DNA of 64,000 nt from Escherichia phage AV124. Under the pieces are notes generated by a model, which was given only the letters and a program-made list of their open reading frames with translations, searched no databases and was not told where the DNA came from. The stretch's first letter is position 1; each line of letters starts with the position of its first letter. A program made the translations under genes and the position numbers. Below, piece after piece: positions 17,337 to 49,437 of the stretch. The stretch lies in the sequence record OR352954, one strand, 5' to 3'.

Positions 17337-17849
17337 TTAAAGAATCTTTGCAACGTCTTTATAAGACCATGCAAAAAGAGAATTTTGCTTACCTGGTGCA
17401 ACGTCCGCCAGACGTCCAGCAAATCGGGCGCGGTTATGGGGGAACTCAAAGACTACCACGCGCCCGGATATCATTTCCACGCGATCACCGTTTTTCAGAA
17501 GTTTAATCCGGTCAATCAGTGCTTTATGCTCTTTTTTGTGTTTAACATGTTGACGACAAGCGGCGCGCCAATTAACGGAGAATTCATCTTGTTGCGTGGA
17601 TCGCTTAAGGAATTTTTCAGGACAATTGTAATAACACGGGCCGCAGGATTCATCCATATCTTTATAAAAAACCATACCATCTTTGCGGGAAAGGATTGTA
17701 ACACGAATGTAAAGACTTTCATCTCTCGCCCTTGCAAGCTGATAAACTTCATTGCCTACAATAGACGTTTCGATCACGCGGTTATCAGTCAGATAATTTT
17801 CAACAAATTTTTTGTTATTAAGATTAGAATAAATGCTAGTCCAGCCCAT
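17337..17849 (-). CDS. hypothetical protein
   Basis: ORF with SD GAGGTAAATAAA before ATG; downstream of consensus promoter. Confidence 0.5.
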   Translation of the reverse strand: MGWTSIYSNLNNKKFVENYLTDNRVIETSIVGNEVYQLARARDESLYIRVTILSRKDGMVFYKDMDESCGPCYYNCPEKFLKRSTQQDEFSVNWRAACRQHVKHKKEHKALIDRIKLLKNGDRVEMISGRVVVFEFPHNRARFAGRLADVAPGKQNSLFAWSYKDVAKIL

Positions 17850-17891
17850 TTTATTTACCTCGTTTAGTGTTTAATTTGTTGGTGCCTGGTA

Positions 17892-17921
17892 ATTATAGGC
17901 CCTTTCCGGGCCTGGTGTCAA
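17892..17921 (-). promoter_or_regulatory. sigma70 consensus promoter TTGACA-N18-TATAAT with hairpin-forming spacer
   Basis: Minus-strand read: TTGACA CCAGGCCCGGAAAGGGCC TATAAT; -35 overlaps stop of upstream gene. Confidence 0.5.
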
Positions 17922-18703
17922 ATGATACGTTCGAATTTATCGAATCTTTTTGCGGATCTGCCGTGAACGTCGATCACGACGTTGGCGCGTTTACCATCGC
18001 ATAAGCCGCAATCTAAGCAGCTAATGTTGTGAGTGGTATTAACGCAAGTGATCTCGCCCTCCAGGCGGCGCATATTGTGAGTTTTCACGCGGAAAGTTTT
18101 ATAACCCTTGCGCCATGCTGTGATCGCTTGTTTTTCCGTATCGGCTGAGATCTGGCAAATGGTAGCGATACGATGATCAAAATTCTTATGGTGGATCTGG
18201 TGAGTGTACCCCGTATTGCCTTGCGTATGGTTGACCATGTTTTGCCATACCTCAAAAGGGACCGCCGCCGGATCGCCGTAGGAACCTAAACGGATATAAC
18301 GCCCCGCAAAATGTACCAGATCGCGAGAATCAAGATCTTTATAATTGCCTTTTTTGTAAGACTTCCAGACTGACAGCGGGGCCTGGTGTAATGTCACATA
18401 ACAAGCGCCGTTTAAGCTGGTACGATGGGGACACATACCGCAAACAGATGAATCAAGTTTTTTAGCGCTCGCTTCCAGTGGGCTAACATCCTCACGCATG
18501 ATCCAGGTTTGAACCATATCGCCAGTCTTATCGTTAGCGGTTGACATTGTAGCAATGACCACGATCGGGGCCTTATCCAGGACTGACGGGCCTTTATATA
18601 ATACATAACCCTTTTTTGCTGTGGATTTTTTACCCGGTACACTATGCACGATCTCGGATTCAGAGTTGACAACCAGACCATTATTAAGTTTAAACGTAGA
18701 CAT
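17918..18703 (-). CDS. hypothetical protein
   Basis: 261-aa ORF; several Cys (CGMCPH, CLDCGLC). Confidence 0.5.
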   Translation of the reverse strand: MSTFKLNNGLVVNSESEIVHSVPGKKSTAKKGYVLYKGPSVLDKAPIVVIATMSTANDKTGDMVQTWIMREDVSPLEASAKKLDSSVCGMCPHRTSLNGACYVTLHQAPLSVWKSYKKGNYKDLDSRDLVHFAGRYIRLGSYGDPAAVPFEVWQNMVNHTQGNTGYTHQIHHKNFDHRIATICQISADTEKQAITAWRKGYKTFRVKTHNMRRLEGEITCVNTTHNISCLDCGLCDGKRANVVIDVHGRSAKRFDKFERII

Positions 18704-18795
18704 TGCTTTTTACCTCGATTTATCGCGGCCCTTGCCGCCTGAGAAAACACTTTAGCAAGGGCGCTAACTGAAAGCAAGCGCCCAGGGTAAAATAT

Positions 18796-18963
18796 TTTAT
18801 TTAGCTAGTGATAAGGTTTTTCCGTGGTTGATCCCAGGGATAACCCATTGCCCGGCGCCATCTTTAACAGGCTGACGTAAACGCGCCGCCGTGGTTACCT
18901 TGCTGTTAACATTACGGGCAAAAGCGCGGGCCTGGTCACGGGTAGTAAAAGAAATATTTTTCA
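18796..18963 (-). CDS. hypothetical small protein (55 aa)
   Basis: ATG after GAAGAGG on minus strand; below track cut-off. Confidence 0.3.
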
Positions 18964-19252
18964 TGTTGTAGCCTCTTCAGTAGATGTAATTTTGTTTTGC
19001 CCTGGATTTTGGAGATCCTCACCTTTCCGGGCCAGATTGAATCCTCATCGCTTGCGCTTTACTCCACGCCCCACTATTTCAACCGGGGGCCTTGGATTCA
19101 CCCCGCCCCGGTGAGATGAATATTAAGTGATAGCGATCCCCGCGTCAATCCCCTGGATGAAAATAAATTAAAAATATTTTTGTTCGTGTGGGCTTGCGCC
19201 CCGGCCTGGTTAGTGTACTATATAAGGACTCCCACAAATAAAGGTAAACGAA

Positions 19253-24056: not shown

Positions 24057-24450
24057 CCAAGTATTTCTCCAAATGAGTGAGTACAACCCCTTGGGCATAC
24101 TCTTGAGATGCATCATTGTGGTGAAGAACAGCCAGATCACATCCAAGTTTGTGCAAACTCCTCTCGAATGGAGACAAGTGTGTCATCATAACTTCGACCA
24201 GACTAAGCTCTTCTTCTGTGATGTGGAGGGGATCATCCGTGAAATCCCTGGAGATGAGAATCTCTCTCTCACCTCCTTCTCCGTGACCATAGACCTCGAC
24301 AATCCTCCTGTTACAGAAAATTTCGTACTGATAGCCGTTCCAATCTTGACCGTCTTGGGCTTCAAAGTTCACAATGAGGCAACAACCAAGCCCCAACAAG
24401 AGTACCTGGAAATCCAAATTGTGAACAATTTTTTTATTTAAAGTGTTCAT
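24040..24450 (-). CDS. hypothetical acidic protein
   Basis: ORF in minus-strand array. Confidence 0.4.
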   Translation of the reverse strand: MNTLNKKIVHNLDFQVLLLGLGCCLIVNFEAQDGQDWNGYQYEIFCNRRIVEVYGHGEGGEREILISRDFTDDPLHITEEELSLVEVMMTHLSPFERSLHKLGCDLAVLHHNDASQEYAQGVVLTHLEKYLDAKKE

Positions 24451-25873
24451 CTAAGTCCACAGCTTTTCCAAATGGTGGAATCCAACCCTTGCGCCCACCG
24501 CAGATAACCCAGAGAGTGTTGTACTTACGCCCCCAGCTTGAGCCACGATGTCTCAGGTCCTCTATGTAACCATCTGTGAAGATTATAACCTCTTTTGCCT
24601 TAGGAATAAACTCATCGATGTACTCAAAAGCACATGCAGCAGTTGTCCCACCAGTCGATGTAACTCTGTAATCCAGAATTTCCTTTATGTTATCCTGTGT
24701 GTACACGTTGACGTTGCCAACTTGGGTTGACCAACAGAACAATGTGATACGGAAACATTGGTACAGGGTGCTCAAAGCGATTATCTCATTGAAGATACGT
24801 GTCATTGTTTGACGAGAGATAGAACCTGAAACGTCAAAACCGATTACAATATCAACAGTCTCTGTTCTTTTTCTGCCAGGCATAACCATGAACTGTTTCT
24901 TAGTTAGAGCGCCGTGATCACGAAGGACTTTTGTCATTCCTCCTGATCGACGACCTAAGACCCGATAAGTACGGTCTGATTTAACACGAGAAATCATTCG
25001 CTGCTTAATGATTTGCAGGTAATTAATCTTCGGTTTACCTTTTTGTGCGATTAATTCTCTGGCTTCTTTTGGCCCTTCACCACCTGCGGCTTTCATAGCA
25101 GCGTCAATCATGTCCTCAGACCAAGACATATCCTCATCTTCCTGATCAGCAGACTTCTGTGGGTGTGGGTCCGTATACCCCAGGATGTCAAGGTCTTTAT
25201 CATAATCCCCTATGTGCGCTCCCAGCGGCTTACCTTCACCGTCACCAATCTCTTCCGGTAGTAGAGCATAAATCTCTTCAGCCGTTTTTCCCTCATATTG
25301 GTAATCGCAATAACAGTAAGCAAGGAAACCAAATTCTTTTGACTTATCAAACACTTGTCGATGAGTGAACCATTTCAAACTCTCGGCTTTCTGGCCCAAC
25401 TCCTTGACTAGGTCAGTATTGATATAGTGATCAGCGGCGATGTTGAAACGTTTGCGATCAAATGTTTTCCCACGAGACATGTGGTCGTTGGTGACATGGC
25501 GGACCTCATGCATCATGATGAATACAATTTCTTTCATGGTCTTTTGACGATAAAATACATTGATGTACTCTTTGTAATCATCTTTTTGCTGTTGTGTCAT
25601 CATCGGATGCTTGTCAATACGAGCAAAGACTTTTTTCTTGCGATCAGCAGGCATACCCATAATGAACTCTGGGTTAAAGTATAGATTGCGATGATCAGTT
25701 GCTGCGGTTGGAAGCCATGCACAGTCAACTATCAGCGGCATACCGCTTAATAATGTCCCATAGAATGGTCGATTAGTAAGTAAAGCGATGCGGGCAGACT
25801 GAACTCTCTTCAGTGCTTCATCAGCCAGTTCCATAATGCTTTCTTTTTCATCAGTATACATTCTTATCTCCAA
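24434..25873 (-). CDS. vWA domain protein with N-terminal HExxH metallopeptidase-like domain
   Basis: HExxH motif (MMHEVRH) in N-terminal half; MIDAS-like DVSGSIS in C-terminal half. Confidence 0.6.
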   Translation of the reverse strand: MEIRMYTDEKESIMELADEALKRVQSARIALLTNRPFYGTLLSGMPLIVDCAWLPTAATDHRNLYFNPEFIMGMPADRKKKVFARIDKHPMMTQQQKDDYKEYINVFYRQKTMKEIVFIMMHEVRHVTNDHMSRGKTFDRKRFNIAADHYINTDLVKELGQKAESLKWFTHRQVFDKSKEFGFLAYCYCDYQYEGKTAEEIYALLPEEIGDGEGKPLGAHIGDYDKDLDILGYTDPHPQKSADQEDEDMSWSEDMIDAAMKAAGGEGPKEARELIAQKGKPKINYLQIIKQRMISRVKSDRTYRVLGRRSGGMTKVLRDHGALTKKQFMVMPGRKRTETVDIVIGFDVSGSISRQTMTRIFNEIIALSTLYQCFRITLFCWSTQVGNVNVYTQDNIKEILDYRVTSTGGTTAACAFEYIDEFIPKAKEVIIFTDGYIEDLRHRGSSWGRKYNTLWVICGGRKGWIPPFGKAVDLDEHFK

Positions 25874-27104: not shown

Positions 27105-27170
27105 CCCTTGATTTCTAAAAAGTGGCGGTGTATCTTTGTCCATTATTCGTATAAGAGGGTAAGTGAGATT

Positions 27171-28178
27171 ATGAGCAAAGTAGATATTAATGTAAAACCA
27201 AACGAGGCTTGGAATGAGGAGCGAGATTTCATAGATAAGTTGTTACAAGGGAAGCAGGCTGCTCAAGAGAGATTTCTTTCAACTTTTGAGAGGGACAGAC
27301 ATGTTGACAATCCCATCACCCGCTTTATCGAGTATCTTCGTGGGGTGGGGGATCAGAATCCTGTGTTGGAAATTGTTTTGTCTTGCCTTCATAAACTTCC
27401 CACACATGGCGGACCTTTTTATTGGGAATGGTTTGATGGTAATGATGAGGATGTGATGGATTTCGCTTTTGATATGAATCGGAAGACTACCTCTCATTCC
27501 CTATCCAGTATGGTGGCAGAGCATAGAACACATCGCACAGGCGGAAATCATCCTTGGTCAGATCGTTTAACAGAGACAGTGGAACTTTGTTTTCATGGTC
27601 ATGGGAATAGTGAGGCGTTTAAATGCTCGTTCTGGGATTTTTCACACCGTACCCGCAATTTTCTTTATCATTTGAAGCCTCTTCTTGAGGATATGTCGAA
27701 TGGGGATGACCTTCGTTTAGTTGTAGAGTATGCGAGTCATCAAAGAAATGCCTCGATATCGTGGAAGAATCTCCCTGCTGGTCGATTTGAACTTCTGCAT
27801 GTGAGGCTGGTTTGTGGTGACTTGGTTCTTTACTCTGACTATCTTGAGCCTTCGGCGTTCGATCGTGTTTGTAGCCAACTGAACCATTCTGTTATCAACA
27901 TCATGAACAGAAAGATCGCTAATAAGGCACGTAAAGCAATGTTCGTTTGTTCTCCGAAAGAAACGATGTTCCACTTGGAATATGACCCCAAGCTACAGAG
28001 CATGATGGAGGGGGACTCCCCGACAGAAGAAGAACTCATGATGATGTCTATTGCAGGATATGAAGATGAGTTTTGGCTTGACAACGTAAAATCTTTCGAT
28101 AGACTGAACATAAAACCCTTTAACCTAGAGGAAGCTGTCAAATGGTATCAACAGACAAGAGTTGTATTCAAGCTTTAA
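27171..28178 (+). CDS. hypothetical protein
   Basis: First gene of rightward block; track ORF 27108 trimmed to ATG after AGAGGG. Confidence 0.5.
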   Translation: MSKVDINVKPNEAWNEERDFIDKLLQGKQAAQERFLSTFERDRHVDNPITRFIEYLRGVGDQNPVLEIVLSCLHKLPTHGGPFYWEWFDGNDEDVMDFAFDMNRKTTSHSLSSMVAEHRTHRTGGNHPWSDRLTETVELCFHGHGNSEAFKCSFWDFSHRTRNFLYHLKPLLEDMSNGDDLRLVVEYASHQRNASISWKNLPAGRFELLHVRLVCGDLVLYSDYLEPSAFDRVCSQLNHSVINIMNRKIANKARKAMFVCSPKETMFHLEYDPKLQSMMEGDSPTEEELMMMSIAGYEDEFWLDNVKSFDRLNIKPFNLEEAVKWYQQTRVVFKL

Positions 28179-28651
28179 GTCCAGCACAAGAACTTGCTTT
28201 GGCAATTAAAATTGCAGCAGAAGGCCACCTGAATCAGAAAGATAAGGGTGGTAACCCGTACATCCTTCATCCACTGAAGGTAATGCACTACCTGAAGACT
28301 GATGATTTTCAGCTCATGGCTATCGCTGCCCTACATGATGTTATCGAAGATACTGACGTTATGGCGGCTGATCTCGTGATGATGGGATTCTCCAACCGTG
28401 TTGTCTGTGCAGTGGTCCTACTGACGAAGACACCAAACCAGTCACCAGAAGAATATTTTCAGGGTATTGCAAGCAACTACGACGCGGTTCGTGTGAAGCT
28501 TGCAGACCTGCGTCACAACTCTGACGTTCGTCGCCTGAAAGGTCTGACAGATAAGGATTTGTTGCGTGTTCGTAAGTATCACGACATGTATCTTCGTTTG
28601 ACAAAGATGAAAGAACACCACGAAGCGATCAACGTCTTATCTAAACTATAA
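28142..28651 (+). CDS. HD-domain phosphohydrolase, SpoT/RelA (p)ppGpp-hydrolase-like
   Basis: GNPYILHPLKV and AALHDVIEDTD match the SpoT-type HD hydrolase signature. Confidence 0.75.
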   Translation: MVSTDKSCIQALSPAQELALAIKIAAEGHLNQKDKGGNPYILHPLKVMHYLKTDDFQLMAIAALHDVIEDTDVMAADLVMMGFSNRVVCAVVLLTKTPNQSPEEYFQGIASNYDAVRVKLADLRHNSDVRRLKGLTDKDLLRVRKYHDMYLRLTKMKEHHEAINVLSKL

Positions 28652-29088: not shown

Positions 29089-29151
29089 TCATTGCAATGG
29101 GGGAGGATCAAATGTATCCTGCTCCCGAATTTCATTTACAGGAGACAAATA

Positions 29152-30348
29152 ATGTCAAGTCGCAACATCTTTTCTGGTAACTGGATCACTTTGCGTGATC
29201 TCCCGCCGCTCGTACAATTTTGCCAGCGTCACAAACGTTCACTGATGATCTTCGGCGGGGCAGGTATTGGTAAAAGTCAGGCTGTGAAGCAAATTGCGGA
29301 TTCTCTTTTCGGGCCTGGTGATAACTTGGTAGACTTCCGCTTGGCTGATAAAGATAACACCGACCTCACCGGGGTGCAGATTCCATACACCGATGACAAT
29401 GGTGTTACTCGCACAGTGTACGCCTTGCCGGATTTCTGGCCTCGTGATCCTAACTGGAAAGGTATTGTGTTCCTTGACGAGCTTCTCCACGCCGAGCCTT
29501 ACCTTCAGAAACTGGCATTCCAAATCATGCTGGACCGTCGAATCGGGACCTACCAGTTCCCTGAAGGGGCTGTACTGGTTGCTGCTGGTAACCGTGCTGG
29601 GGATGGTACTGCCGTGACTGCACTGGAAGCTCCTTTGGCTAACCGTATGATGCTGGTAGAGCTTACCTATAGCGCATCGGTGTTCATCGAAGACTATGCC
29701 ATGCAGAACGGTATTCATTCGTCAATCATTGGTTTTCTGTCTCGTAAGAACAGTGCTATTGAAAACTATGAAGAAATGCTGGATATCGGGTGTCCTTCTT
29801 TCGCCACACCGCGTACTTTAACTTACGCCAGTGATGTATTGTACGATTACGATGCTAATTTGCTGCCTGCCAACCTAGCTAAGGTTGCTCTTCAGGGCTT
29901 CATTGGCACACCTTTAATGGCTGAACTGTGGGCATACCACACTAAGATTCGTAATATGGTCCCGATCGAAGACGTTATGAACGGTACTGCCCAAGACCCC
30001 GGAGACCTTCCATCCGATAGTTTGTGGATTTTAGGTTCCGAAGGTGCTATTTGGTTGCGTAAGGCTATTGCAGATACCAACTACACCGATGATCAGATTA
30101 TTGAATTCTCTGGTAACTTCCTACAGTATCTTTATGATCACTTTATGGACCAGAACCGAGACTTCGTAAGCTCTATTTTCCTGTCGTTCATTAAGGAAAA
30201 TGCATTCGGTAAGGCGCTGTTGACCACTGCAAGCAACCGTGACAAGCTTCCTGCACGTTTGTTGAAGGCAAAGCCCATCATAATGAAAATTATGGCAGAC
30301 TTCCAGGTCAACTACGCTGAAGATATTAAGCTTATCGAAGGAAAATAA
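29152..30348 (+). CDS. AAA+ ATPase (AAA_5/MoxR-like)
   Basis: Walker A GGAGIGKSQ, Walker B VFLDEL, sensor region AAGNRAGDGT; start trimmed to ATG after AGGAGA. Confidence 0.6.
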   Translation: MSSRNIFSGNWITLRDLPPLVQFCQRHKRSLMIFGGAGIGKSQAVKQIADSLFGPGDNLVDFRLADKDNTDLTGVQIPYTDDNGVTRTVYALPDFWPRDPNWKGIVFLDELLHAEPYLQKLAFQIMLDRRIGTYQFPEGAVLVAAGNRAGDGTAVTALEAPLANRMMLVELTYSASVFIEDYAMQNGIHSSIIGFLSRKNSAIENYEEMLDIGCPSFATPRTLTYASDVLYDYDANLLPANLAKVALQGFIGTPLMAELWAYHTKIRNMVPIEDVMNGTAQDPGDLPSDSLWILGSEGAIWLRKAIADTNYTDDQIIEFSGNFLQYLYDHFMDQNRDFVSSIFLSFIKENAFGKALLTTASNRDKLPARLLKAKPIIMKIMADFQVNYAEDIKLIEGK

Positions 30349-30350
30349 TA

Positions 30351-30379
30351 TTGACAGCCCCTCTTGGGGCTGTTATGCT
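30351..30379 (+). promoter_or_regulatory. sigma70-like promoter TTGACA-N17-TATGCT with hairpin in spacer
   Basis: TTGACA GCCCCTCTTGGGGCTGT TATGCT; spacer forms CAGCCCC-TCTT-GGGGCTG stem-loop. Confidence 0.4.
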
Positions 30380-30903: not shown

Positions 30904-31203
30904 ATGATCCGTTCACCCGGTTTTGGTTATATCTACATCCCAGATTTCACTGGGGAAGATCGTCTTGTTAGGATCAGTGATCTTGACATCAGTGATATTG
31001 AAAATCAGGCACGATATGGACAGGCTGAAAAAGAGTGTTATATTCGTACAGATAATGGCTTCTGTCAGACAAGCTGGACATCGGGCATAACTGCAATGGA
31101 AGTTCTTGAGAAGATTGCTAAACACGATAAAGATAATCTTGGAGCCTTCCGTGATTATGCACATCGTAACCGGATTGTCTTAATGAAGGGGGAATTATGG
31201 TAA
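30904..31203 (+). CDS. hypothetical protein
   Basis: SD GGAGG before ATG. Confidence 0.45.
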   Translation: MIRSPGFGYIYIPDFTGEDRLVRISDLDISDIENQARYGQAEKECYIRTDNGFCQTSWTSGITAMEVLEKIAKHDKDNLGAFRDYAHRNRIVLMKGELW

Positions 31204-31523
31204 AAAACTTTTCGAATTCTGACGATATCCCTTCTTCTGTACCAATTACGGAAGAGCATTTCCAGATTGTTGGTAATGCGTGGGAGTTGGTTATGTCATA
31301 CAAACCAATTTGGTATGATGTTGAAGCACTTTCCTACTTCTTCGTGTTCTGCTCTAATCGAGACAGCATGTATAAGCCTGCTTGCGATGCTGTTGATCGA
31401 CTCTATGGTGAGATCAAGAATGAAGGTTGGAACGATAATCGAATTCAGCGTTTCAAGAACTTAGATGCTCTGTCGCGTGAAATTCATGATACGACCCCTG
31501 ATATGTTCGTTCAGGACATGTGA
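31197..31523 (+). CDS. hypothetical protein
   Basis: ORF overlapping upstream stop. Confidence 0.45.
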   Translation: MVKNFSNSDDIPSSVPITEEHFQIVGNAWELVMSYKPIWYDVEALSYFFVFCSNRDSMYKPACDAVDRLYGEIKNEGWNDNRIQRFKNLDALSREIHDTTPDMFVQDM

Positions 31524-31795
31524 TGAGAGACATACCTGAGAGCAAGTATCAATGCTTCTGGAAGTGCCGCCGCTGTGGAACATTCCTACGCCTAGGTGTT
31601 AGGTATTGTGATTGCGGCTGTCAGGAGATCGTTGCAGAGCTTATAGGTCTCGATGTGCTGGCAAGTTATGGCTACCTTCCCGACCGAAAGGTAGAGGTTG
31701 AATTGAAAGGCCAAAAACCTAAAAGGTTAGAAGATTTGCGAAAAGCACAAGCGTATCTGAATGAACTTATCAAACTGGTGGAAGAAGATGGCTAA
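31520..31795 (+). CDS. hypothetical zinc-ribbon protein
   Basis: CFWKCRRCG...CDCGC cysteine pairs. Confidence 0.45.
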   Translation: MMRDIPESKYQCFWKCRRCGTFLRLGVRYCDCGCQEIVAELIGLDVLASYGYLPDRKVEVELKGQKPKRLEDLRKAQAYLNELIKLVEEDG

Positions 31796-31964
31796 GTTTA
31801 AATTCCAGAAATCTGAGCTAAACGAGTGTTGGTGGCTTGACACCGCCGACTGTGTTATGGCAGGATACACCTATCGACGGCATCGGGTTTTTGTTGTCTG
31901 TGCGAAAAATCGTGCGGATGCTATTGAATCCATGAAAGAGTTTAAAGAGAGGAGTTGCAAATGA
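31791..31964 (+). CDS. hypothetical small protein
   Basis: Track ORF trimmed to ATG after GGAAGAAG. Confidence 0.35.
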   Translation, partial: AKFKFQKSELNECWWLDTADCVMAGYTYRRHRVFVVCAKNRADAIESMKEFKERSCK

Positions 31965-32473
31965 AGGAGAGCGAAGAGGCATTGCAGGCACTTAAATCTT
32001 CCTTCTCATATGACCCTGAGACAGGTTTGTTTACTTGTATCAATCCTCTCGCTCGTCGTCATTTTGGTAAGGTTGCAGGCACAAAAAGGAAAGATGGGTA
32101 TATACGCCTCGGTGTTAAGGTAAGCGGCAAGCTGAAAATGTTTCTCGCGCATAGGGTTGCCTGGGCTTTTTATCACGGTGTGTGGCCTGATGGCCTTATT
32201 GACCATAAAGACTGGGACAGACAAAATAATAAAATAGACAATCTCAGGGTTGTTGACAAAAGCACAAATAATTATTATTATTCCCCTTGGAAAGGGAAGT
32301 CACAGACAGGTTACAGGGGTGTTAGGATAGATAAAAGGAGAAATCCTCCCAGATATCAAGCTATTTTCTGCGACACTCATCTTGGGATGTTCTCTACAGC
32401 AGAAGAGGCATATGCTTGCTATCAAAAGTATGTTATGAAGACACAGGAGATTATCGCAGATGCTGAAATATAA
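31955..32473 (+). CDS. HNH homing endonuclease with AP2-like DNA-binding domain
   Basis: HRVAWAFYHG...IDHKDWDRQNNKIDNLRVV (HNH) followed by GYRGVRI...YQA (AP2-like). Confidence 0.65.
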   Translation: MQMKESEEALQALKSSFSYDPETGLFTCINPLARRHFGKVAGTKRKDGYIRLGVKVSGKLKMFLAHRVAWAFYHGVWPDGLIDHKDWDRQNNKIDNLRVVDKSTNNYYYSPWKGKSQTGYRGVRIDKRRNPPRYQAIFCDTHLGMFSTAEEAYACYQKYVMKTQEIIADAEI

Positions 32474-32951
32474 AGTTGGTGATTTGATTAAAGCTATTCA
32501 AGATGGTGAAGTAAATGTTTTTGGTCATGGTTGTAATTGCTTTGTGACTATGGGTAGCGGGATCGCCCCGTTGATCAAAGAAGCATTCCCTAAGATGTAC
32601 GCTGCCGACCTGAAAACTGAGAAGGGCGACAAGACCAAGCTGGGAACCTGTACAATGGCCTTTTTGAATGATGGGTCTCTCGTAGGATTTAATCTGTACT
32701 CACAGTACGGTTATAATCGCCGCAAACAGGGTCTCAGGGACCTTGACTACAATGCCCTGTATGATTCAATGGTTGAAATGAAAAAGCTCTTACAGAGCTA
32801 TACAGACGGCCCTATGGACACCTATCGAATCGGGTTCCCTAAACTAGGTGCTGGGCTTGCAGGGGGTGACTGGAATGTCATCGAAGCAATGATCAAATCA
32901 ATCTTCTTTGATTGTGATGTAACTGTGTACATTCTGCCGGAGAAAAAGTGA
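32460..32951 (+). CDS. macro domain protein (ADP-ribose binding/processing)
   Basis: GDLIKA..VNVFGHGCNCFVTMGSGIAPLI and IGFPKLGAGLAGGDW match macro-domain core motifs. Confidence 0.65.
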   Translation: MLKYKVGDLIKAIQDGEVNVFGHGCNCFVTMGSGIAPLIKEAFPKMYAADLKTEKGDKTKLGTCTMAFLNDGSLVGFNLYSQYGYNRRKQGLRDLDYNALYDSMVEMKKLLQSYTDGPMDTYRIGFPKLGAGLAGGDWNVIEAMIKSIFFDCDVTVYILPEKK

Positions 32952-32952
32952 T

Positions 32953-33126
32953 GACAGAAAAGAAAAACCTACACCCTGATACTGCATATGATCGTATTGT
33001 TGCGGCAATTCGTGCAATCGACCCGAAATTGGTAGACGCCCTTGACAGAAAGGATGCCCTCAACGATATTAATGATGCTTGCTATGAAGTTTTATGGCAA
33101 GATTGGATGGGGGATGATGAATGATT
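32953..33126 (+). CDS. hypothetical small protein (57 aa)
   Basis: Below track cut-off; start overlaps upstream stop, stop overlaps next start. Confidence 0.3.
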
Positions 33127-33330
33127 GAACTTAAAGACGGCATGGTGGCCCACACCAAGAAGATCGACCTTCACGTTGGTAACACAGTGTTTACATACAA
33201 TGCACCACGAGGAAAGAGCTTTGTTGTTCTTCTACTTGGCGTAGAGAAGCCGGATGGTCAAGGAGAAGGTATTCAGATTGACGAATGGCTGAATAGTCGT
33301 GGCTGGAAGCTGGAGGGTCCTGATGAGTAA
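33121..33330 (+). CDS. hypothetical protein
   Basis: ORF in array. Confidence 0.4.
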   Translation: MIELKDGMVAHTKKIDLHVGNTVFTYNAPRGKSFVVLLLGVEKPDGQGEGIQIDEWLNSRGWKLEGPDE

Positions 33331-33541
33331 ATCGGTTTTTGTCATCTATGACACTGTTGACAAATGCCTCTGGAACCACAAAGCCAAGATTGGGTGGATT
33401 AGTTCCGGCGCGGCGAAGAACGCCTGGAATCTTGCCCACGCAACCTGGAGTGGGAAGCAGTATTTTGATGACCAGCAAAGATATGTAGTTCTTGAGCTTT
33501 CTGGCGGACACGTTAGTAAATTATTTGAGGAGAATAAATGA
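33323..33541 (+). CDS. hypothetical protein
   Basis: Track ORF trimmed to ATG after GGAGGG. Confidence 0.4.
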   Translation: MSKSVFVIYDTVDKCLWNHKAKIGWISSGAAKNAWNLAHATWSGKQYFDDQQRYVVLELSGGHVSKLFEENK

Positions 33542-33894
33542 CCATGAATGAATCTGTAGATTCTGCAACCACCCCAATGATCGGTGGTAAGATTTACGCT
33601 GGCGTTATCATCAACGCCCGTCCGTTTGTGGAGGTATGGCCCCGTTGTATTTGTGGTTATCTGGCTGGCAAGGATCATCACAACCGAGGGTTTGATAATG
33701 GCCCTATTCGTACCTCCACGGTGCAAAGCCTGCTGCTGGAGAATGGTAAGCTATTCGCCATCACACTGAATAGCGCTTATCGCCTAGAATCTGTAGATCT
33801 GGCAGCTTTTCTTAATTGTCCTGGGTGGTTCGATGACCTTGATAATTTGATCACTCAGGCTGTAGCTCCTAAAAAGGGGGTGTCCATTGACTAA
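33538..33894 (+). CDS. hypothetical protein
   Basis: ATGA overlap with upstream gene. Confidence 0.45.
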   Translation: MTMNESVDSATTPMIGGKIYAGVIINARPFVEVWPRCICGYLAGKDHHNRGFDNGPIRTSTVQSLLLENGKLFAITLNSAYRLESVDLAAFLNCPGWFDDLDNLITQAVAPKKGVSID

Positions 33895-34930
33895 ACCAAT
33901 TAAATACCCAAGCACCGCACAGTTCCGTCAGGTTATCCGCACCATGCATGATAAACTGACGTTCGACGGTCTTGATGAAGAAGGCAATATCAAGCGTAAG
34001 GTTTTGCCACCGGACGCATACTTGATCCCGTACATTGGTACGGTTAAGCTCCACGGCACAAATGGTAGCGTGGTATTCCACTCTGAGGATGAAGTTGTCT
34101 TCCAGTCCAAAGAGCGTGTCGTTACTGTAGGTGACGATAACAATGGCTTCGCGGCTTTCATGTCTCGAAAAGACACCTCAGAGCTGCTTTCCCAGGTTAA
34201 ATACCTGTGTGAAGTCAATGAAGTTGAGTTCCAGTTCCCGGTTGAAATTGCTGGTGAATGGGCTGGTCGCGGCATTCAGAAAGGTGTTGCCATCACTGAA
34301 GTAGAGCCATTCTTTGCTATCTTCCGTGTGGCTGTAGGCCGGGATGAGGCGACGGATACCCTCAACTGGCTACCACCAACGTTCCAGTTTGGAATGGGAT
34401 TGCCGGATGCTCGTATCTACAGTATCCTTGACTTCGGTTACTGGATGGCTAATATCCCATTCAATGAGCCAGAACTTGTCCAGAATGACTTGGCAGAACT
34501 GACTCGTGAAGTGGAAAACAAATGCCCGGCAGGTAAGTTCTTTGGCGTAGAAGGTATCGGTGAAGGCATTGTCTGGTCTCCAAAAGATCCTGAGCTTTCT
34601 AAAATCTCTGGTCTGTGGTTTAAAGTCAAGGGTGATAAACATTCTGTATCCAAAGTTAAGACCCTGGCAGCGATCGACCCAGAACGCCTCGCAAGTATGC
34701 GTGAGTTCGTTGAGTACGCTGTGACGGAAGCACGTCTTGAGCAGGGTGTTAGCGAAGTCGGTCTTGACCAGACTAAGATTGGTGAATTCATTGGATGGAT
34801 TAACCGAGACATCAACAAGGAAGAGGGTGATGTTCTGGAAGCCAGCTCCATGACCATGAAAGATGTTGGTAAGTTTATCAGCAACAAAGCTCGTGCATGG
34901 TACATGACTCGTCTGAGTGAGGAGGGCTAA
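33887..34930 (+). CDS. RNA ligase, Rnl2-like
   Basis: Nucleotidyltransferase motif I KLHGTN, EIAGEWAGRGIQKGV (cf. T4 Rnl2 FGEFAGPGIQKNV), motif IV EGIVW, motif V WFKVKGDK. Confidence 0.75.
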   Translation: MTKPIKYPSTAQFRQVIRTMHDKLTFDGLDEEGNIKRKVLPPDAYLIPYIGTVKLHGTNGSVVFHSEDEVVFQSKERVVTVGDDNNGFAAFMSRKDTSELLSQVKYLCEVNEVEFQFPVEIAGEWAGRGIQKGVAITEVEPFFAIFRVAVGRDEATDTLNWLPPTFQFGMGLPDARIYSILDFGYWMANIPFNEPELVQNDLAELTREVENKCPAGKFFGVEGIGEGIVWSPKDPELSKISGLWFKVKGDKHSVSKVKTLAAIDPERLASMREFVEYAVTEARLEQGVSEVGLDQTKIGEFIGWINRDINKEEGDVLEASSMTMKDVGKFISNKARAWYMTRLSEEG

Positions 34931-35112
34931 TGGCCCTCATTGTAGCCACAACGCGGTCTGTTGAAAAAAGACCTGGACATTCTTTCACCGAGTGTGATAC
35001 CTTGATTTTCGAAGATGAAGAACAGGGAAAAAAGTTTGTTAAAGATAACAAACAGTTTGTCTATAATGTCCAAAAAGCGAGGGTCATTAAAAATGGTGAG
35101 ACCAGAACCTAA
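34930..35112 (+). CDS. hypothetical small protein
   Basis: ATGGCC overlapping upstream stop. Confidence 0.35.
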   Translation: MALIVATTRSVEKRPGHSFTECDTLIFEDEEQGKKFVKDNKQFVYNVQKARVIKNGETRT

Positions 35113-35278
35113 GTTTAAAGTCGGGCAGACAGTCAAAGATACCTGGAGCGGCAAGGTTGGCCCTATTTCCACCATGTACTTTTCAGAAGGAGACCAGTAC
35201 AACAAGGCAGAATGGGCATATTCTATAGACCATATCGGGTGGTTATTCCATCCAGAGTCTGACTTGGAGTCGGTGTAA
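35093..35278 (+). CDS. hypothetical small protein
   Basis: Track ORF trimmed to ATG after GAGGG. Confidence 0.35.
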   Translation: MVRPEPKFKVGQTVKDTWSGKVGPISTMYFSEGDQYNKAEWAYSIDHIGWLFHPESDLESV

Positions 35279-35697
35279 TGGGTCTTCGTGAATACTTAGC
35301 AGTCAAATTAAAACATGCAAAGGGGCAATCTATGGTTAAAGTGAATGGTAATACCATCACGATCAACGGGAATACCGTCGTTAATGGTGACATCATTGGT
35401 GGAGACTTGAGTATTTCTGCAAATGGGGATAAAATCCTCATCAACGGAAAAGAGGTCTATACCACTTCTGATAAAAACATTACCGTAGTCATCCACGGAA
35501 ATACAGGAAGCATAAACACCACATCTGGTGGTGTGAAGGTGTATGGCACAGCAGGTAATGTTAAGACTGTTTCTGGTGATGTCCGTATCGAAACAGGGTC
35601 ACTTGCAGATGTGACTACCGTCTCAGGAGATGTTATAGCAGAAACCATTGAAGGTAATGTGAAAACAGTTTCAGGAGATGTTTCTCACCGTCGTTGA
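35278..35697 (+). CDS. beta-strand repeat protein (bactofilin/GIN-like repeats)
   Basis: Repeats of TVSGDV / NG-x-I pattern throughout the 139-aa product. Confidence 0.4.
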   Translation: MGLREYLAVKLKHAKGQSMVKVNGNTITINGNTVVNGDIIGGDLSISANGDKILINGKEVYTTSDKNITVVIHGNTGSINTTSGGVKVYGTAGNVKTVSGDVRIETGSLADVTTVSGDVIAETIEGNVKTVSGDVSHRR

Positions 35698-35701
35698 TAT
35701 A

Positions 35702-35724
35702 CAGCCCCATTATGGGGCTTTTTA
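35702..35724 (+). terminator. rho-independent terminator
   Basis: AGCCCCA-TTA-TGGGGCT followed by TTTTT. Confidence 0.55.
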
Positions 35725-35739
35725 ATTTGGAGTGTAAAT

Positions 35740-36270
35740 TTGAAATTGAAAAATATGATTTTGGCAACCGCCTGTATCCTTTCTCTGACTACCACACCTG
35801 TCTTAGCCAAAGAAAGTGTAAAGAAGCCCAAAGTTATCCATCTTTGTAAGAAGGATGACACAGCGGTAAACATTTTAGCCTGCAACATGTACAAAGAAGC
35901 TCGTGGAGAGAGTGATTCCGGGTTAATGTCGATCGCATTCGTAACTTTGAATCGTAAGGATAACGATAAGTACCCTGGAACAGTAAAGAAGATCGTCTAC
36001 CAGCCCGGACAATTCTCCTGGACATCTTCAGGAACAACGTTTAAAGTCTATGAAAAGGATCGCTGGGAGAAGGCACAAGAGTTTGCAAAAGTTCTGATCA
36101 AGATTCATAAACAAAACAGGGTCGTCTACGATGCTCTGGACATAACACATGGAGCAACCCACTACCATTCACGAAAAGTAAAACCCTACTGGACAAAGGC
36201 CATGCTACGCACAGTCAGGATCGATAACCATATCTATTATAAAGAGAAAGAAGATTCTCAGGGGGCATGA
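35740..36270 (+). CDS. secreted cell wall hydrolase, SleB/CwlJ-like
   Basis: N-terminal signal peptide (MKLKNMILATACILSLTTTPVLA); NMYKEARGES...VTLNR...YQPGQFSW matches SleB/CwlJ catalytic-domain motifs. Confidence 0.6.
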   Translation: MKLKNMILATACILSLTTTPVLAKESVKKPKVIHLCKKDDTAVNILACNMYKEARGESDSGLMSIAFVTLNRKDNDKYPGTVKKIVYQPGQFSWTSSGTTFKVYEKDRWEKAQEFAKVLIKIHKQNRVVYDALDITHGATHYHSRKVKPYWTKAMLRTVRIDNHIYYKEKEDSQGA

Positions 36271-36274
36271 ACTC

Positions 36275-36430
36275 ATGAAGAAATTCTTAGCAATATTTGT
36301 TTGCATTACCCCTTTGTGTGTGATATTGTCACTGTCACAGCCCATATATTGGGAACAAATTTGTGGAGCATACGCAATAGGTATGGCTACAGCGGCCTTT
36401 AGACTAAATACAAACAACTGCAAAAAGTAG
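36275..36430 (+). CDS. hypothetical small membrane protein (51 aa)
   Basis: Below track cut-off; hydrophobic; weak SD. Confidence 0.25.
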   Translation: MKKFLAIFVCITPLCVILSLSQPIYWEQICGAYAIGMATAAFRLNTNNCKK

Positions 36431-36439
36431 GAGAAGTAG

Positions 36440-38431
36440 ATGATAATCGAGCGTAATGAGAAGAAGGTAGAAGTTAGTACCAACGTCAAACGCTATCAAG
36501 CTGGTATCGCGATCAATGCTGAAACTTTCAGTATCTTGATCGATGGTATTTATGAGGACAAGATCCTTGCTGCCTGTCGTGAACCCCTGTTCAATGCGGT
36601 AGATGCACACACAGAAGCCGGATGCCGGGACAAACCGATTATCATCCACTCCCCAACGGACTTGGAACCGTGGTATTCTGTCAAGGATGGTGGTATTGGG
36701 ATGGACTTTGACATGGTTACCCAGACCTTCATGATGCTGGGATCGTCCACTAAACGTGAATCCAACGATCTGATCGGTGCGAAAGGTATTGGTTCCAAGG
36801 CCCCGTTCACCGTTACGGACATGTTCAGTGTCATCTCTATCAAAGATGGTACTAAAACTGTGTACTCTGTTCATAAAGACCAAGGTATTCCTGAGGTTGT
36901 TCCTCTTCACGAGTCTAAAACCATAGAAGAAAATGGTGTTGAAATCAAATTCAACGTTGATCCGACAGAGACTGAGAAATACCGCCGTGCAATTATTAGT
37001 TGCCTGCGTTATGCTAAGTTCCCTTACGAGATCAATGACCCGTTTGTGACTTCATCTATTCGAGACCGTACCTACCCGGTGCAGTATACGTTCAAAGATG
37101 AAGAATCTGGTTGGATGCTGGAAATGTATTCGTCGGTATCTAACAACGCCGATAGCGTTGTGGTTATGGGACAACAGCCATACAAGTCAAAGTTTCTGAG
37201 CAATAACCCTGAATGGCCTTTAATGATGGTTTCCATTCCGATCGGGGATTGTGACGTAAACCCAGGACGTGAATGGACTATCGAGGGTAAGAATGACCGT
37301 GGATTCGAAGAGCGTCTTAAGGCATTTGTCCAGACTGCCCTTGATCGTCGTGGTGAAGAAATCTATCATGAACTCCGTAAGCTTTCAAATCTGGCTGATG
37401 TATTAGCTTATATGAAGCGGGTAGGTGGTTGGTTTGCCACTAAATATGGTGCAAAGTACATCGCAGAACTCTTCGCAGAGCACACTAACTCTTTGAATAT
37501 TAAAGAGTGCGTGACTTATAATGGTCATGGTGAAAAGCGGAGGATGGATAAGACATACTCTTACACAGACATGATGAACGGCTTCCACCTTGTCTACAAC
37601 GATATTAATAAACTTGTTCGTAGCCGTTGTAATCAGTTATTTGATGTAACAGGCAAGGCCGTCTATCTGACGGACAATCTTGGTGTGGCACAAATGTGTG
37701 ATAATCCATTCTTTGCGGGAATGGTCCATAAGCTGTCGGATTTGGAAAAGCGTCCAGCATCGAAATCGGATAAAAAGTATGGCGGATATAGCCTGTATGA
37801 ACCAGGGCATCCAGTATGGATCATTGAGCAGAGTGGAGCTATTAGGAAAACACGTATCTCCCGTGCGGAATTTGATGATATCAAATATGCCATGGTCTAT
37901 TCTGGTGGTCAGGCACGAGGGACTTGTGACCTTGGGTCTACGGCGTACCTTTCTAACCGTCATCAACCGGAGACCTTCTTGTCAGATCTTGGTATTGATG
38001 ATAAATTATACATCGTACCTTTAAACCGAGTGAGTTGGCTGGATGATGATGTTAGGATGATTACACAGGACGACCTTTATAAGGTTGCAAGTTCAAACCT
38101 GTTGGATTATCATCTTAGTCAGTTAACCAGACAGCGTGAGTATCGCTCTCTCTTGGACGACTTAAAGGGAATAGGTGTAGAGGTTGTCAAAGATCCTGAA
38201 TACAAGCAAAAGGTTAATATGGCTAACACTCTTTACAATATTAAAGGTTATTATAGTGCAGAAAGAACTGCGAAGAGAATCATCAATGGACGTATTCGTG
38301 TTGGGAAAAGTCTGATTAACAAGGTAAAAGAGCGTTACCCGTTGCTGAAACACGTCCCGATGCAACATTTTAACTCACCAGAGGTGGTTGAGTACCGTAA
38401 ATTTATTGATAGCAAAGGAGAAAATAAATGA
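36440..38431 (+). CDS. rIIA: rIIA protector from prophage-induced early lysis (GHKL ATPase-like N-terminus)
   Basis: N-terminal 150 aa align closely with T4 rIIA (MII..E, REPLFNAVDAH, VKDGGIGMD, ESNDLIGAKGIGSKAPF). Confidence 0.8.
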   Translation: MIIERNEKKVEVSTNVKRYQAGIAINAETFSILIDGIYEDKILAACREPLFNAVDAHTEAGCRDKPIIIHSPTDLEPWYSVKDGGIGMDFDMVTQTFMMLGSSTKRESNDLIGAKGIGSKAPFTVTDMFSVISIKDGTKTVYSVHKDQGIPEVVPLHESKTIEENGVEIKFNVDPTETEKYRRAIISCLRYAKFPYEINDPFVTSSIRDRTYPVQYTFKDEESGWMLEMYSSVSNNADSVVVMGQQPYKSKFLSNNPEWPLMMVSIPIGDCDVNPGREWTIEGKNDRGFEERLKAFVQTALDRRGEEIYHELRKLSNLADVLAYMKRVGGWFATKYGAKYIAELFAEHTNSLNIKECVTYNGHGEKRRMDKTYSYTDMMNGFHLVYNDINKLVRSRCNQLFDVTGKAVYLTDNLGVAQMCDNPFFAGMVHKLSDLEKRPASKSDKKYGGYSLYEPGHPVWIIEQSGAIRKTRISRAEFDDIKYAMVYSGGQARGTCDLGSTAYLSNRHQPETFLSDLGIDDKLYIVPLNRVSWLDDDVRMITQDDLYKVASSNLLDYHLSQLTRQREYRSLLDDLKGIGVEVVKDPEYKQKVNMANTLYNIKGYYSAERTAKRIINGRIRVGKSLINKVKERYPLLKHVPMQHFNSPEVVEYRKFIDSKGENK

Positions 38432-45933: not shown

Positions 45934-48300
45934 ATTAAAGGTCTGTTTATACTGGATAACGAGGCCGATGGCCTGTTAGACGAAGTAACTAAGTACCATT
46001 GTACTTTGCTGAAAGAATTCGGAGTCAACAACTGGAACCTGTTTTTAGACCCCGCACACCCTGAATATGAAAGCGCTGTAGCCTTTGCCAGGAGCAAGAA
46101 GGATGCTAATCTTACAATTCGTTCATACGACGAGCTGGAAAGCTTCCTGAAGACTTGTAGAGCCATTGCGTGTCACAACCTGTTTGGTTATGACCTGCGC
46201 CTGTGGAAGAAGTTATCGGGCATTGAATATGATATGTTCAAAGACCCGAAGTGCATGGGGACGATTGGGGATACACAGGTAAATCTCTACGACACCCTCT
46301 CTATGAGCCGTGTGCTTTATCCTGACCGTCCATTACCTAACGGTTGCCCTGACTCTGTTCTTAACCCGGTAACCGGGAAGCGAGACCGTGTAGGTCCTCA
46401 TGGCCTGTTGGCCTGGGGCTACCGCGTAGCAAACAAGAAAGTTCAGATCGATGACTGGCGTAACCAACCCTTGTGGGAATACGTTAATCGTGTCTGGGAA
46501 GACGTTTTAATCAACGAGTTAGTATGGCAATCCCTGATCGATGAATCTACAGGTGCTCGCTGGCCTGATGACAAGCAGTTCATGTACAAAGATAAACCGG
46601 AAGGGATGCGGCAGATCAACTGGAAGAACGCGCTACGCCGCCGTATGTTGACTGATTACCTGATGATTGAGCAAGAAATTCAGGGTGTTCCATTCAATAA
46701 GCATGAAGCTGAAAAGCTGAGAGACCGTATTGATGTAATGATGAAAGAGATTGAGGAAGAAGTAGAACCTCAACTCCCGCTCAAAGAGATGACGAAGTCT
46801 CAACAGCCAAAATTCCCTGCTAATCCTTTTGATGGTGCAGGAAGAATTTCCCATCACGGGTGGAATTGGTTAGAATACAAGCTGGGATATCCAGTTAATC
46901 GTGAAGCGCTGGAATTCAAAGGTCCACCGAAGACGGCGTTTAAAGGTAACGGTGATGTAAGTGCAGCAGGGGAAAGATACTGTATCCAGAATGGTGTTGA
47001 AGACCCGGCAGCGATGCCAGACTTCATTAGAAGCCAGATAAAGAAAGAGAATACCCTTGTCCCATTGCCACCAGACCTAATGGAAAAGGCAATTGCCGAT
47101 CTTCGTGCTGGAAAGATGCCAGACCTGATGGTTCCGATGAAGATCTCGAACCAGGACGACATCAAGAAGTACCTGATCCGCGATGCGGGATGGAAACCAA
47201 CGCTCTGGCGTGTTAAAGATGTGACGAAAGACCAGTTCAAAAAGACCCGCGATGATGCGGAGGTTGATGGTCTGGTGCGTAAGTACATCGAAGAACTTGG
47301 AGAGTCCGAGTATAAATCTCTGATTCTTGAGCACTTAAATAATAGTGACGCAAAGTTCAATATCTCGGAAAACAAGTTCGACCATCGTCATGGTTCTGAT
47401 CGTGTTTACGAGGAGGTCTTCAAGAAGTTCCGACGCAAAGCTCGTCAACTGCCGACTTCACCACAGTTGAAGGATAACTTTGGCAAGCTGTGTCCTAACC
47501 TTGAAGTTATCGATGTTCACTTGGCTAAACAGATTGTTAAGTGGCTGTCATTACGTAACCGTCGTTCTGTTCTCGACCCTATTGACGAGGATAAAAACGA
47601 TACAGGGCTGTTGAATCATCCTCGCCTGGCGATTGATGGAAAACTTCCAGCTCGTTTCTCTGGTATCACTAACACCGGGCGTTGTAAGCACACCATTTGT
47701 GCAAACATGCCTAAGCCAGATCCTAAGGTGTTGTTGGGTAAAGAGATGCGTGGTCTCTGGGGTGTGACCGATGAATATTACCAGGTCGGTATCGATGGTT
47801 CTAACCTCGAAGGTATGATCGCGGCATGGGGTGCATATCAGTTCGATGGTGGTGAATACCTCCGTATCATGGAAAGTGGAGATGCCCACGCACGAAACGC
47901 CGAGGCATACACCAAAGCTTCTGGTACTCTGGTAACGCGTAACGGTGGTAAAGGGGTAACCTACGGCATCATGTATGGTGCTCAGGCAGCTAAGATTGCA
48001 GCAATGCTTCACATTTCCCTTGACAAGGCACAGGCGGTAATCGATGCTTTCTGGGATAGTAACTTTGGTTTGAAAGGTCGTAAGGAATGGCTTGAAAACT
48101 TCTGGGAAGCAACGGGTAAACGTTATATCCCTGGTCTCGATGGTCGTAAGATTTGGACCCGTTCTAAGCACTCTCTTCTGAATGCTTTCCAGCAAAACGG
48201 TGGTGCATCTCTATTCGATCTGGTTGGTATCCTGCTTCACTGGGAACTGATCAAACGTGGCTGGTATGATGATGACGTTCGTCGCCTGATTTACTACCAT
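45934..48300 (+). CDS. DNA polymerase, family A (T7 gp5-like), 5' exon; apparent non-canonical start
   Basis: Alignable to T7 gp5 (LDNEADGLLDEVTKYHC exo I region, GPHGLLAWGYRV, motif B KGVTYGIMYG); frame open from 45922 with no ATG/GTG/TTG before conserved exo I motif; exon ends at YYH just before motif C. Confidence 0.75.
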
Positions 48301-49419: not shown

Positions 49420-49437
49420 TATATAAGGATATTTTAT

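Follow-up and report, generated by a model that had tools for sequence, protein, structure and literature searches.

In the 64,000-nucleotide stretch of the genome of Escherichia phage AV124 that we analysed (sequence record OR352954; hereafter the window), a gene for a macro domain protein (32460–32951, + strand) is followed 0.9 kb further on by a gene for an RNA ligase of the Rnl2 type (33887–34930, + strand), which raises the question of whether the two belong to one system. A preliminary description of the window, made from the sequence alone, had taken the interval 31955–34930 for a cluster devoted to RNA repair and ADP-ribose processing: together with tRNA enzymes elsewhere in the window, it would form a toolkit for repairing cleaved or modified tRNA and for removing ADP-ribose-derived adducts. 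Our analysis leans towards a different answer, namely that macro protein and ligase are two unrelated accessory functions that came to stand side by side through the history of a phage lineage. The comparisons directly establish the family membership and fold of the two proteins, the conservation of their critical residues, a fusion link between the ligase and a neighbouring open reading frame (ORF) of 118 residues, and that the linkage of macro and ligase genes is not conserved. Both proteins are ordinary members of known families and do not overturn the current understanding of these.

The interval 31000–36500 is 91–95% identical to the genomes of Vequintavirinae myoviruses of Klebsiella, Raoultella, Proteus, Salmonella and Cronobacter (including the Mydovirus phages KB57, KNP2 and DP), in whose records the macro gene is named 'putative phosphatase' and the ligase gene 'RNA ligase 2'. 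The interval is a portion of the early-gene block of a Mydovirus-like phage, with expression presumably early in infection; KNP2 is colinear with the window over a stretch that begins near 106 kb, reaches the end of its record and continues to 18 kb.

The macro domain protein

The product of the gene at 32460–32951 is, as had been claimed, a macro domain protein: the + strand ORF of 163 residues matches phrog_335 (3.8e-61) and its AlphaFold2 model (pLDDT 94) has the macro fold, the Pfam Macro score of 21.5 bits lying 0.5 bit under the 22-bit cut-off. The top Foldseek matches of this model are TARG1, Bt_1257, DarG and Poa1p (TM-scores of 0.71–0.75), and SCO6735 is also grouped with these. For the subtyping that the preliminary description had proposed, a family profile was compared with solved structures; Bt_1257 (7e-19) and SCO6735 (5e-17) ranked above TARG1 (7e-15), Poa1p and DarG. 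Both glycine-rich ADP-ribose-binding loops, GSGIA (32–36) and GAGLAGG (130–136), are intact and align with the loops of TARG1, DarG, Poa1p and Bt_1257. Residues N26, Q82 and G84 correspond to Asn27, Gln85 and Gly87 of SCO6735, the first two being invariant across 33 members of the family, and the long mobile loop of SCO6735 and Bt_1257 is also found in the window protein. On these profile matches, the protein is assigned to the SCO6735/Bt_1257-like subclass of the ALC1-like macrodomains; SCO6735 and Bt_1257 differ from it in being bacterial chromosomal proteins with only some 20–25% identity to it, and the physiological target of SCO6735 is itself uncertain.

Homologues of the macro protein were detected in 3003 phage records (tblastn), adjoining the vs gene in T4-like phages and annotated as 'Tk.4' in phage rV5. 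BLASTP aligned the window protein with T4 Tk.4, the protein also called AdfM, at 36% identity over 150 residues (E 2e-28), and phrog_335 is common to the window protein, T4 Tk.4 and rV5 ORF209. Like Tk.4, which is similar in size, the window protein is an orphan macro domain without a DarT-binding domain, has its catalytic position occupied by Gln instead of Lys, and is encoded by an early accessory gene of a phage; unlike Tk.4, it has a mobile loop that is six residues longer (as in SCO6735 and Bt_1257) and lies in a different genomic context. Being about equally far from the rV5 copy (35%) and from T4 Tk.4, and carrying the longer loop, it belongs by sequence to a subgroup separate from the T4 and rV5 copies. 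DarG is the only match of the protein in PADLOC and NCBIfam; the score against the DarG equivalog is 36.8 vs 250 bits, the match being confined to the macro portion of these models. At the position of Gln82 in the window protein, DarG2 and the chimallivirus AdfM (PhiKZ gp104) exhibit a catalytic lysine (K80 and K78), and DarG2 in addition has a C-terminal domain that binds the DarT toxin, whereas the 163-residue window protein has none. Because it lacks both the catalytic lysine and the toxin-binding domain, the macro protein is not of the DarG2 type.

The function of the relatives has been addressed in several studies. SCO6735 hydrolyses the thymidine-ADP-ribose that DarT makes on DNA, its Gln85 sits at the position of the catalytic lysine of TARG1 and DarG, and activity is lost completely on mutation of Gln85 and almost completely on mutation of Asn27 (PMC9411070). 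In a transposon-sequencing preprint, tk.4 emerged as the only gene that T4 needs on a host with DarTG2, a result confirmed by a clean knockout, and the gene was named adfM (10.1101/2025.11.20.689424). Chimalliviruses use a different macro AdfM of the Lys type, which has been shown biochemically (PMC13309987), and NADAR proteins from other Vequintavirinae phages reverse DarTG1 (PMC11825919). A NADAR protein is also encoded by KNP2 (73178–73729), so that in this lineage NADAR and macro proteins mirror the AdfN and AdfM pair of T4.

The window protein is thus predicted to be a DNA (thymidine) ADP-ribosyl glycohydrolase of the Tk.4/AdfM family. Because of the homology to T4 Tk.4/AdfM, the Asn/Gln pair of the SCO6735 type and the restriction of library matches to DarG, its most likely role would be to undo DarT2-type ADP-ribosylation of phage DNA, and of the possibilities that the preliminary description had raised, the reversal of nucleic acid ADP-ribosylation as an antiphage countermeasure is the one that these homologies support best. 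In such a mechanism, a DarT2-type toxin of the host would place ADP-ribose on thymidines of single-stranded phage DNA and thereby block replication; the two glycine-rich loops of the macro domain would then grip the ADP-ribose, Asn26 and Gln82 would hold the distal ribose in place, and the bond would be hydrolysed and the DNA restored. The protein would, in other words, act as an orphan, antitoxin-like ADP-ribosyl glycohydrolase.

The RNA ligase and its 118-residue neighbour

For the gene at 33887–34930, the assignment as an Rnl2-like RNA ligase on the basis of the motifs KLHGTN, EGIVW and WFKVKGDK proved correct. The + strand ORF of 347 residues contains all three, exceeds the 27-bit cut-off of PF09414 with 33.3 bits and matches phrog_548 (2.9e-77), which is common to this protein and T4 Rnl2. 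Against the NCBIfam Rnl2 equivalog TIGR02307 it scores 20.8 vs 197 bits, far under the cut-off: with PF09414 passed and TIGR02307 far out of reach, the protein belongs to the family without being closely equivalent to T4 Rnl2. The structural model (pLDDT 90) has four helices at residues 265–346, forming the C-terminal domain, and among solved structures it matches full-length T4 Rnl2 best (2hvr, 3.8e-11), ahead of ligases of the Rnl3, Rnl5 and Rnl1 types. Since MAFFT misaligned the C-terminal half of T4 Rnl2 with the ligase family, residues were compared by means of hhalign, which aligned the family profile with T4 Rnl2 at 96% probability (residues 51–341 with T4 residues 32–331, about 23% identity).

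In this alignment, eleven of the twelve T4 Rnl2 residues checked are kept. The catalytic lysine that the preliminary description had wished to see aligned is among them: K54, H56 and N59 of motif I (KLHGTN) correspond to K35, H37 and N40 of T4 Rnl2 (K-I-H-G-T-N). Motifs III, IIIa, IV and V are represented by E124 (T4 E99), F146 (F119), E226 (E204) and K246/K248 (K225/K227), and the C-terminal domain by R283 (R266), D308 (D292) and E312 (E296). Ten of these eleven residues are invariant in 30 homologues, and K248 is at least 90% conserved. Judged by sequence and model, the ligase is a divergent but full-length member of the Rnl2 family with two domains, a nucleotidyltransferase and a helical C-terminal domain; it shares with T4 Rnl2 the architecture, the phrog_548 assignment, the nucleotidyltransferase motifs including the Phe of motif IIIa, and the Arg, Asp and Glu of the C-terminal domain, and differs from it in an insertion of about 20 residues before motif I (by eye) and in the residue equivalent to Asp120. 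The family comprises 3594 relatives in a large protein database and 328 phage records. Unlike T4 Rnl2, some of these relatives bear N-terminal fusions, either to the domain discussed below or to a metallophosphoesterase: in two homologues (P0031 and P0034), the metallophosphoesterase is of the 2',3'-phosphoesterase type, which ties this ligase clade to the healing of RNA ends.

Ligases of the Rnl2 type connect a 3'-OH end to a 5'-phosphate end, and the resulting junction carries no 2'-phosphate. For the window ligase, Lys54 would accordingly be adenylylated by ATP and hand the AMP on to a 5'-phosphate, after which a 3'-OH/5'-phosphate nick in duplex RNA would be sealed while the C-terminal domain holds the duplex. 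The enzyme probably mends RNA that host ribonucleases have cut, once separate enzymes have healed the ends.

The ORF directly upstream (33538–33894, +), which encodes 118 residues and overlaps the start of the ligase gene by 8 nt, gives a further indication of how the ligase may work. Six ligase homologues (P0036, P0038, P0062, P0064, P0072 and P0090) bear an unannotated N-terminal extension of about 110 residues, and the 118-residue ORF aligns with these extensions over its full length. A profile built from stand-alone copies alone detects the fused extensions (2.5e-13 to 3e-7) and gives no decoy match among 9383 sequences. Fused forms occur, for example, in Salmonella phage SSBI34 and Acinetobacter phage ABPH49, and among the 30 listed of 40 matching GenBank records, the ORF lies at or adjoins the ligase gene wherever a ligase is annotated. 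The domain is rare, with 12 cluster representatives in 1.84 billion proteins, and the profile extends this to 24 clusters, all of small phage proteins. Apart from a PHROG match, whose label 'methyltransferase' we found to be unsupported, the ORF has no match in Pfam, PADLOC or NCBIfam, nor in solved structures (profile search, E up to 10). On this sequence evidence, the ORF is best described as the stand-alone, split-gene form of an N-terminal domain that is fused to Rnl2-like ligases elsewhere, and because of that fusion its product is probably an accessory subunit together with which the ligase acts. This domain of about 110 residues, fused or split, is a modest new point that we noticed here for the first time.

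Linkage of macro and ligase genes

In order to test the linkage of the two genes, we ran a macro hidden Markov model across 80 ligase loci from IMG/VR, covering 6 kb around each ligase. A macro gene was present in 15 of the 80, all from close lineages: 13 loci are of the Vequintavirinae type and two belong to Vibrio phages in which the macro gene is 4–5 kb off, whilst in four loci with ligases that are 61–63% identical it is absent. With 3003 phage records against 328, macro homologues are also about ten times commoner than the ligase, and where both occur they can be far apart: in T4 the two homologues are separated by some 48 kb, and the macro gene of rV5 has no ligase within 6 kb. Even among the relatives, the ORFs between macro and ligase vary. 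We therefore rejected a recurrent module of macro and ligase. The confinement to one set of lineages points to shared ancestry rather than recurrent association: the adjacency is a matter of lineage history inside a plastic early region, and the two proteins probably act independently, not as one repair module. Outside the lineage, the ligase has other neighbours, namely an ATP-dependent DNA ligase (22 of the 80 loci) and an Rnl1-type ligase (17 of the 80), arrangements that we refer to as ligase islands; a SpoT/Aph1-like HD protein is found near the ligase in 14 loci, about six of them outside the lineage.

The putative transcription unit that holds both genes (30.4–35.7 kb) contains neither a kinase nor a phosphoesterase, and hence no heal-and-seal cassette was found beside the ligase. 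An ORF of 356 residues at 27108–28178, labelled 'thymidylate kinase' in PHROGs, was not accepted as a polynucleotide kinase: it has no Pfam or NCBIfam match and no P-loop by eye. In KNP2, on the other hand, a row of genes at 64083–69251 (14083–19251 in locus L086) encodes a metallophosphoesterase, an Rnl1-type ligase, a Pnk-like kinase of the AAA_33 type, a Sir2 protein and an ATP-dependent DNA ligase. This row is likely to be the lineage's heal-and-seal set for tRNA repair, and it lies outside the region equivalent to the window, where none of its proteins has a match. It resembles the Clostridium thermocellum Pnkp-type and T4 Pnkp/Rnl1 systems in combining metallophosphoesterase, P-loop kinase and Rnl1-type ligase, and the fusion of window-ligase homologues to a metallophosphoesterase is a further point of resemblance; the window ligase differs from both systems in having no adjacent healing enzyme.

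Taken as a whole, the locus is in our view best explained, with moderate confidence, by an AdfM-type macro protein and an Rnl2-type ligase that serve independent purposes, although for both proteins we infer the substrates and the counter-defence roles. Several points weigh against this explanation. Macro domains of this class also process protein-linked and RNA-linked ADP-ribose as well as soluble derivatives, and in the Foldseek comparison Poa1p and TARG1 are comparably close to the macro model. No in vivo role of Rnl2 is known, even in T4; in the window ligase, the residue equivalent to T4 Asp120 is Arg147 (Gly in most homologues). The closest Klebsiella relatives are without the 118-residue ORF, which is therefore dispensable for the ligase, and the promoters and terminator assigned to the unit (see below) are consensus matches alone. 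Furthermore, the macro protein is just 35–36% identical to Tk.4 and the rV5 copy and has a longer mobile loop, and the DarTG2 result for Tk.4 is so far a preprint (10.1101/2025.11.20.689424).

The explanation must also be weighed against others. That macro protein and ligase serve a single pathway, with the ligase rejoining cleaved tRNA and the macro protein clearing ADP-ribose-derived by-products or adducts such as the ADP-ribose-1''-phosphate from 2'-phosphate removal, would fit their position only 0.9 kb apart on the same strand and apparently in one unit, as well as the presence of Poa1p among the structural matches of the macro protein. The closest published idea to this model of the preliminary description is a KptA/2H/Macro wing of phage RNA repair, and some phage sirtuins have been proposed to be KptA-like (PMC9503650), a point of interest given that the Sir2 gene of KNP2 adjoins an Rnl1-type ligase. 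However, since Rnl2 chemistry leaves no 2'-phosphate, a Poa1p-like step acting on ADP-ribose-1''-phosphate would receive no substrate from this ligase, and apart from the Sir2 gene elsewhere in KNP2, no KptA/Tpt1 or 2H protein was detected in about 50 scanned ORFs of the window (not every small ORF) or named in the annotations of DP and KNP2. Together with the restriction of the linkage to 15 of 80 loci, the separate genes of rV5 and T4, the intervening genes that differ from phage to phage and the DNA-defence phenotype of Tk.4, this makes a common pathway very unlikely. Least probable of all the readings considered is direct cooperation on RNA, in which ADP-ribosyltransferases of the host would cap 5'- or 3'-phosphate ends of RNA or otherwise modify it, a TARG1-like macro protein would decap these to yield ligatable 5'-phosphates, and the Rnl2-type ligase would reseal them under the guidance of the 118-residue domain; in a weaker version of this idea, the ligase may be a two-subunit variant of Rnl2, marked out by the domain as a new subunit that targets RNA or heals its ends.

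Two further alternatives concern the proteins individually. T4 Rnl2 is able to seal nicks in which the strand with the 3'-OH is RNA on a DNA template, and the window ligase might accordingly serve not the repair of tRNA or RNA damage but a replication-linked metabolism, for example the sealing of nicks with a ribonucleotide 3' end in RNA:DNA hybrids. DNA ligases and Rnl1-type ligases are indeed the commonest neighbours in divergent phages, yet the metallophosphoesterase fusions point to the healing of 2',3'-cyclic phosphate ends made by ribonucleases and the phage also has RlaP and a CCA-repair enzyme, so that we hold this to be distinctly unlikely. The macro protein, for its part, could act on soluble derivatives (O-acetyl-ADP-ribose from a phage Sir2 protein, ADP-ribose-1''-phosphate or signalling nucleotides) and feed free ADP-ribose into NAD+ salvage instead of acting on DNA. 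In the view of Iyer et al., the targets of phage macro domains are mostly soluble derivatives, the macro homologue of Vibrio phage AG74 adjoins a ribose-phosphate pyrophosphokinase gene, and the lineage is rich in NAD+ genes, with NadR-like (53968–55056) and PnuC (56609–57424) genes in the window and NAMPT-like, ribose-phosphate pyrophosphokinase-like and Sir2 genes in KNP2. Against this stand the DarTG2 phenotype of T4 Tk.4, the Asn/Gln pair that matches the DNA-acting SCO6735, and the distance of the NAD+ genes, which are at least 20 kb away or outside the window; we consider this alternative to be unlikely.

Gene layout and surroundings

The interval 31955–34930 contains the macro and ligase genes as the preliminary description had stated, but its first 519 bases encode an HNH homing endonuclease that had gone unmentioned (31955–32473, +; PF13392 HNH_3 6.9e-15, phrog_99 2.4e-44). 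This gene overlaps the start of the macro gene by 14 nt, has a clear homologue (63–68% identity, tblastn) in just four of 14 related Vequintavirinae-type loci, and in KNP2 the similarity ends at the macro start: it is a mobile insertion directly upstream of the macro gene. Between macro and ligase lie not three small ORFs, as had been stated, but four, each with a PHROG match. Upstream of the 118-residue ORF these are ORFs of 58 residues (32948–33124, +; phrog_35483, 9e-36), 69 residues (33121–33330, +; phrog_8770, 9e-32) and 80 residues (33299–33541, +; phrog_8277, 1e-35), which were seen in just three, in 12 and in 10 related loci, respectively. Downstream of the ligase, ORFs of 60, 87 and 139 residues (34930–35697, +; phrog_9816, phrog_3261 and phrog_3163) belong to the same putative transcription unit and are kept in 10–14 related loci. 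The last of these (35278–35697, +) contains three in-frame repeats of 48–51 nt with a motif of the type GNV-K-TVSGDV, has a weak match to DUF7361 and is present after the ligase in 13 related loci (tblastn).

A promoter-like site (TTGACA, 17-nt spacer, TATGCT, with TG; 30351–30379, +) is a possible start of this unit, and a terminator-like GC hairpin with a T-run at about 35703–35719 (+), a pattern match from consensus scan and inverted repeat only, is its probable end. A stronger promoter-like match (11 of 12 positions) lies within the HNH gene at 32253–32281, and since the scan returned 28 sites vs 17.4 expected, single sites are weak evidence. The terminator-like hairpin shares most of its stem (CAGCCCC...GGGGCTG) with a hairpin at 30354–30373, located between the -35 and -10 elements of the promoter-like site, and the two flank a 5.3-kb block with macro and ligase: the unit is thus possibly bounded by similar hairpins. 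A repeat scan of 30–36.5 kb revealed only coding repeats and these two hairpins, and the 64-kb window contains no tRNA genes and no Rfam matches.

The other enzymes on which the idea of a repair toolkit had been based lie 5 to 30 kb away, beyond a block of minus-strand genes. A CCA-adding enzyme is present at 7–1200 (NF008137, 382 bits) and an HD hydrolase of the SpoT type at 28142–28651, closest among solved structures to a (p)ppApp hydrolase (7smg, 3.6e-27); the Pth2-like hydrolase (2385–2876), in contrast, reached only 17 bits against the PTH2 cut-off of 23 and had no support from solved structures. An RNA-repair nucleotidyltransferase, RlaP (3262–4332, PF10127), had been overlooked; according to a 2025 preprint, RlaP puts one or two nucleotides on damaged RNA 3' ends prior to ligation. 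The lineage does possess genes for RNA repair, namely those of the CCA enzyme, RlaP and the Rnl1-type ligase, metallophosphoesterase and Pnk-like kinase of KNP2, while the notion of a single cluster or toolkit of macro and ligase is not supported, their linkage being that of one lineage only. Taken together, positions 7–4332 (+) form a row of tRNA- and RNA-repair-type genes: the CCA enzyme, which is of the multifunctional E. coli type for CCA adding and repair with an HD domain and is cut by the window start, two uncharacterised ORFs, the weak PTH2-like hydrolase, a DUF7205 protein and RlaP. In about six phage loci outside the lineage, homologues of the SpoT/Mesh1-like hydrolase (+ strand) recur at a distance of 2–4 kb from the ligase, and the enzyme possibly counters alarmone-synthetase toxins.

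Elsewhere in the window, the NAD+ salvage genes named above (both +) encode an NMN adenylyltransferase that is NadR-like and has a kinase-like domain, and the NMN transporter PnuC, and in KNP2 a NAMPT-like gene adjoins a ribose-phosphate pyrophosphokinase-like one at 58950–61506; these genes may form a pathway of NAD+ reconstitution against NAD-depleting defences. At 46006–50073 (+), the ORF of a family A DNA polymerase ends at profile position 278 of 381 and is followed by an HNH gene, an ORF of 132 residues and a second HNH gene of the NUMOD4 type. The polymerase gene of KNP2 is uninterrupted, with about 1.4 kb less sequence, which suggests that insertions of mobile endonuclease genes have split the polymerase gene; Rfam gave no intron match in this region. 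A DUF2201 metallopeptidase/VWA protein (24434–25873, -) and a P-loop ATPase without Pfam match (29092–30348, +) may constitute a pair of the MoxR/VWA type. In the Vequintavirinae phage Bas54, a MoxR ATPase has been reported as an anti-defence gene; the window ATPase is not homologous to the similarly placed rV5 ORF214, and we claim no homology to the MoxR protein of Bas54. Around 9940–13200, the strand switches in a region with short ORFs only (up to 109 residues) and no tRNA or Rfam match, beside a segment at 8–10 kb with an unusually high AT skew (0.15); for Bas54, an intergenic region without insertions has been reported at the strand switch.

If the macro protein is indeed an AdfM, Mydovirus-like Klebsiella phages, some of which are considered for therapy, would carry a ready counter to DarTG2. 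With the NADAR protein of KNP2, both known types of DarT eraser would then be represented, which would bear on the prediction of host range. With the ligase, a divergent clade joins the Rnl2 family, the biological role of which is unsettled even in T4, and the metallophosphoesterase fusions, together with the domain of about 110 residues that is fused in some phages and split in others, provide handles on what Rnl2 enzymes repair in vivo.

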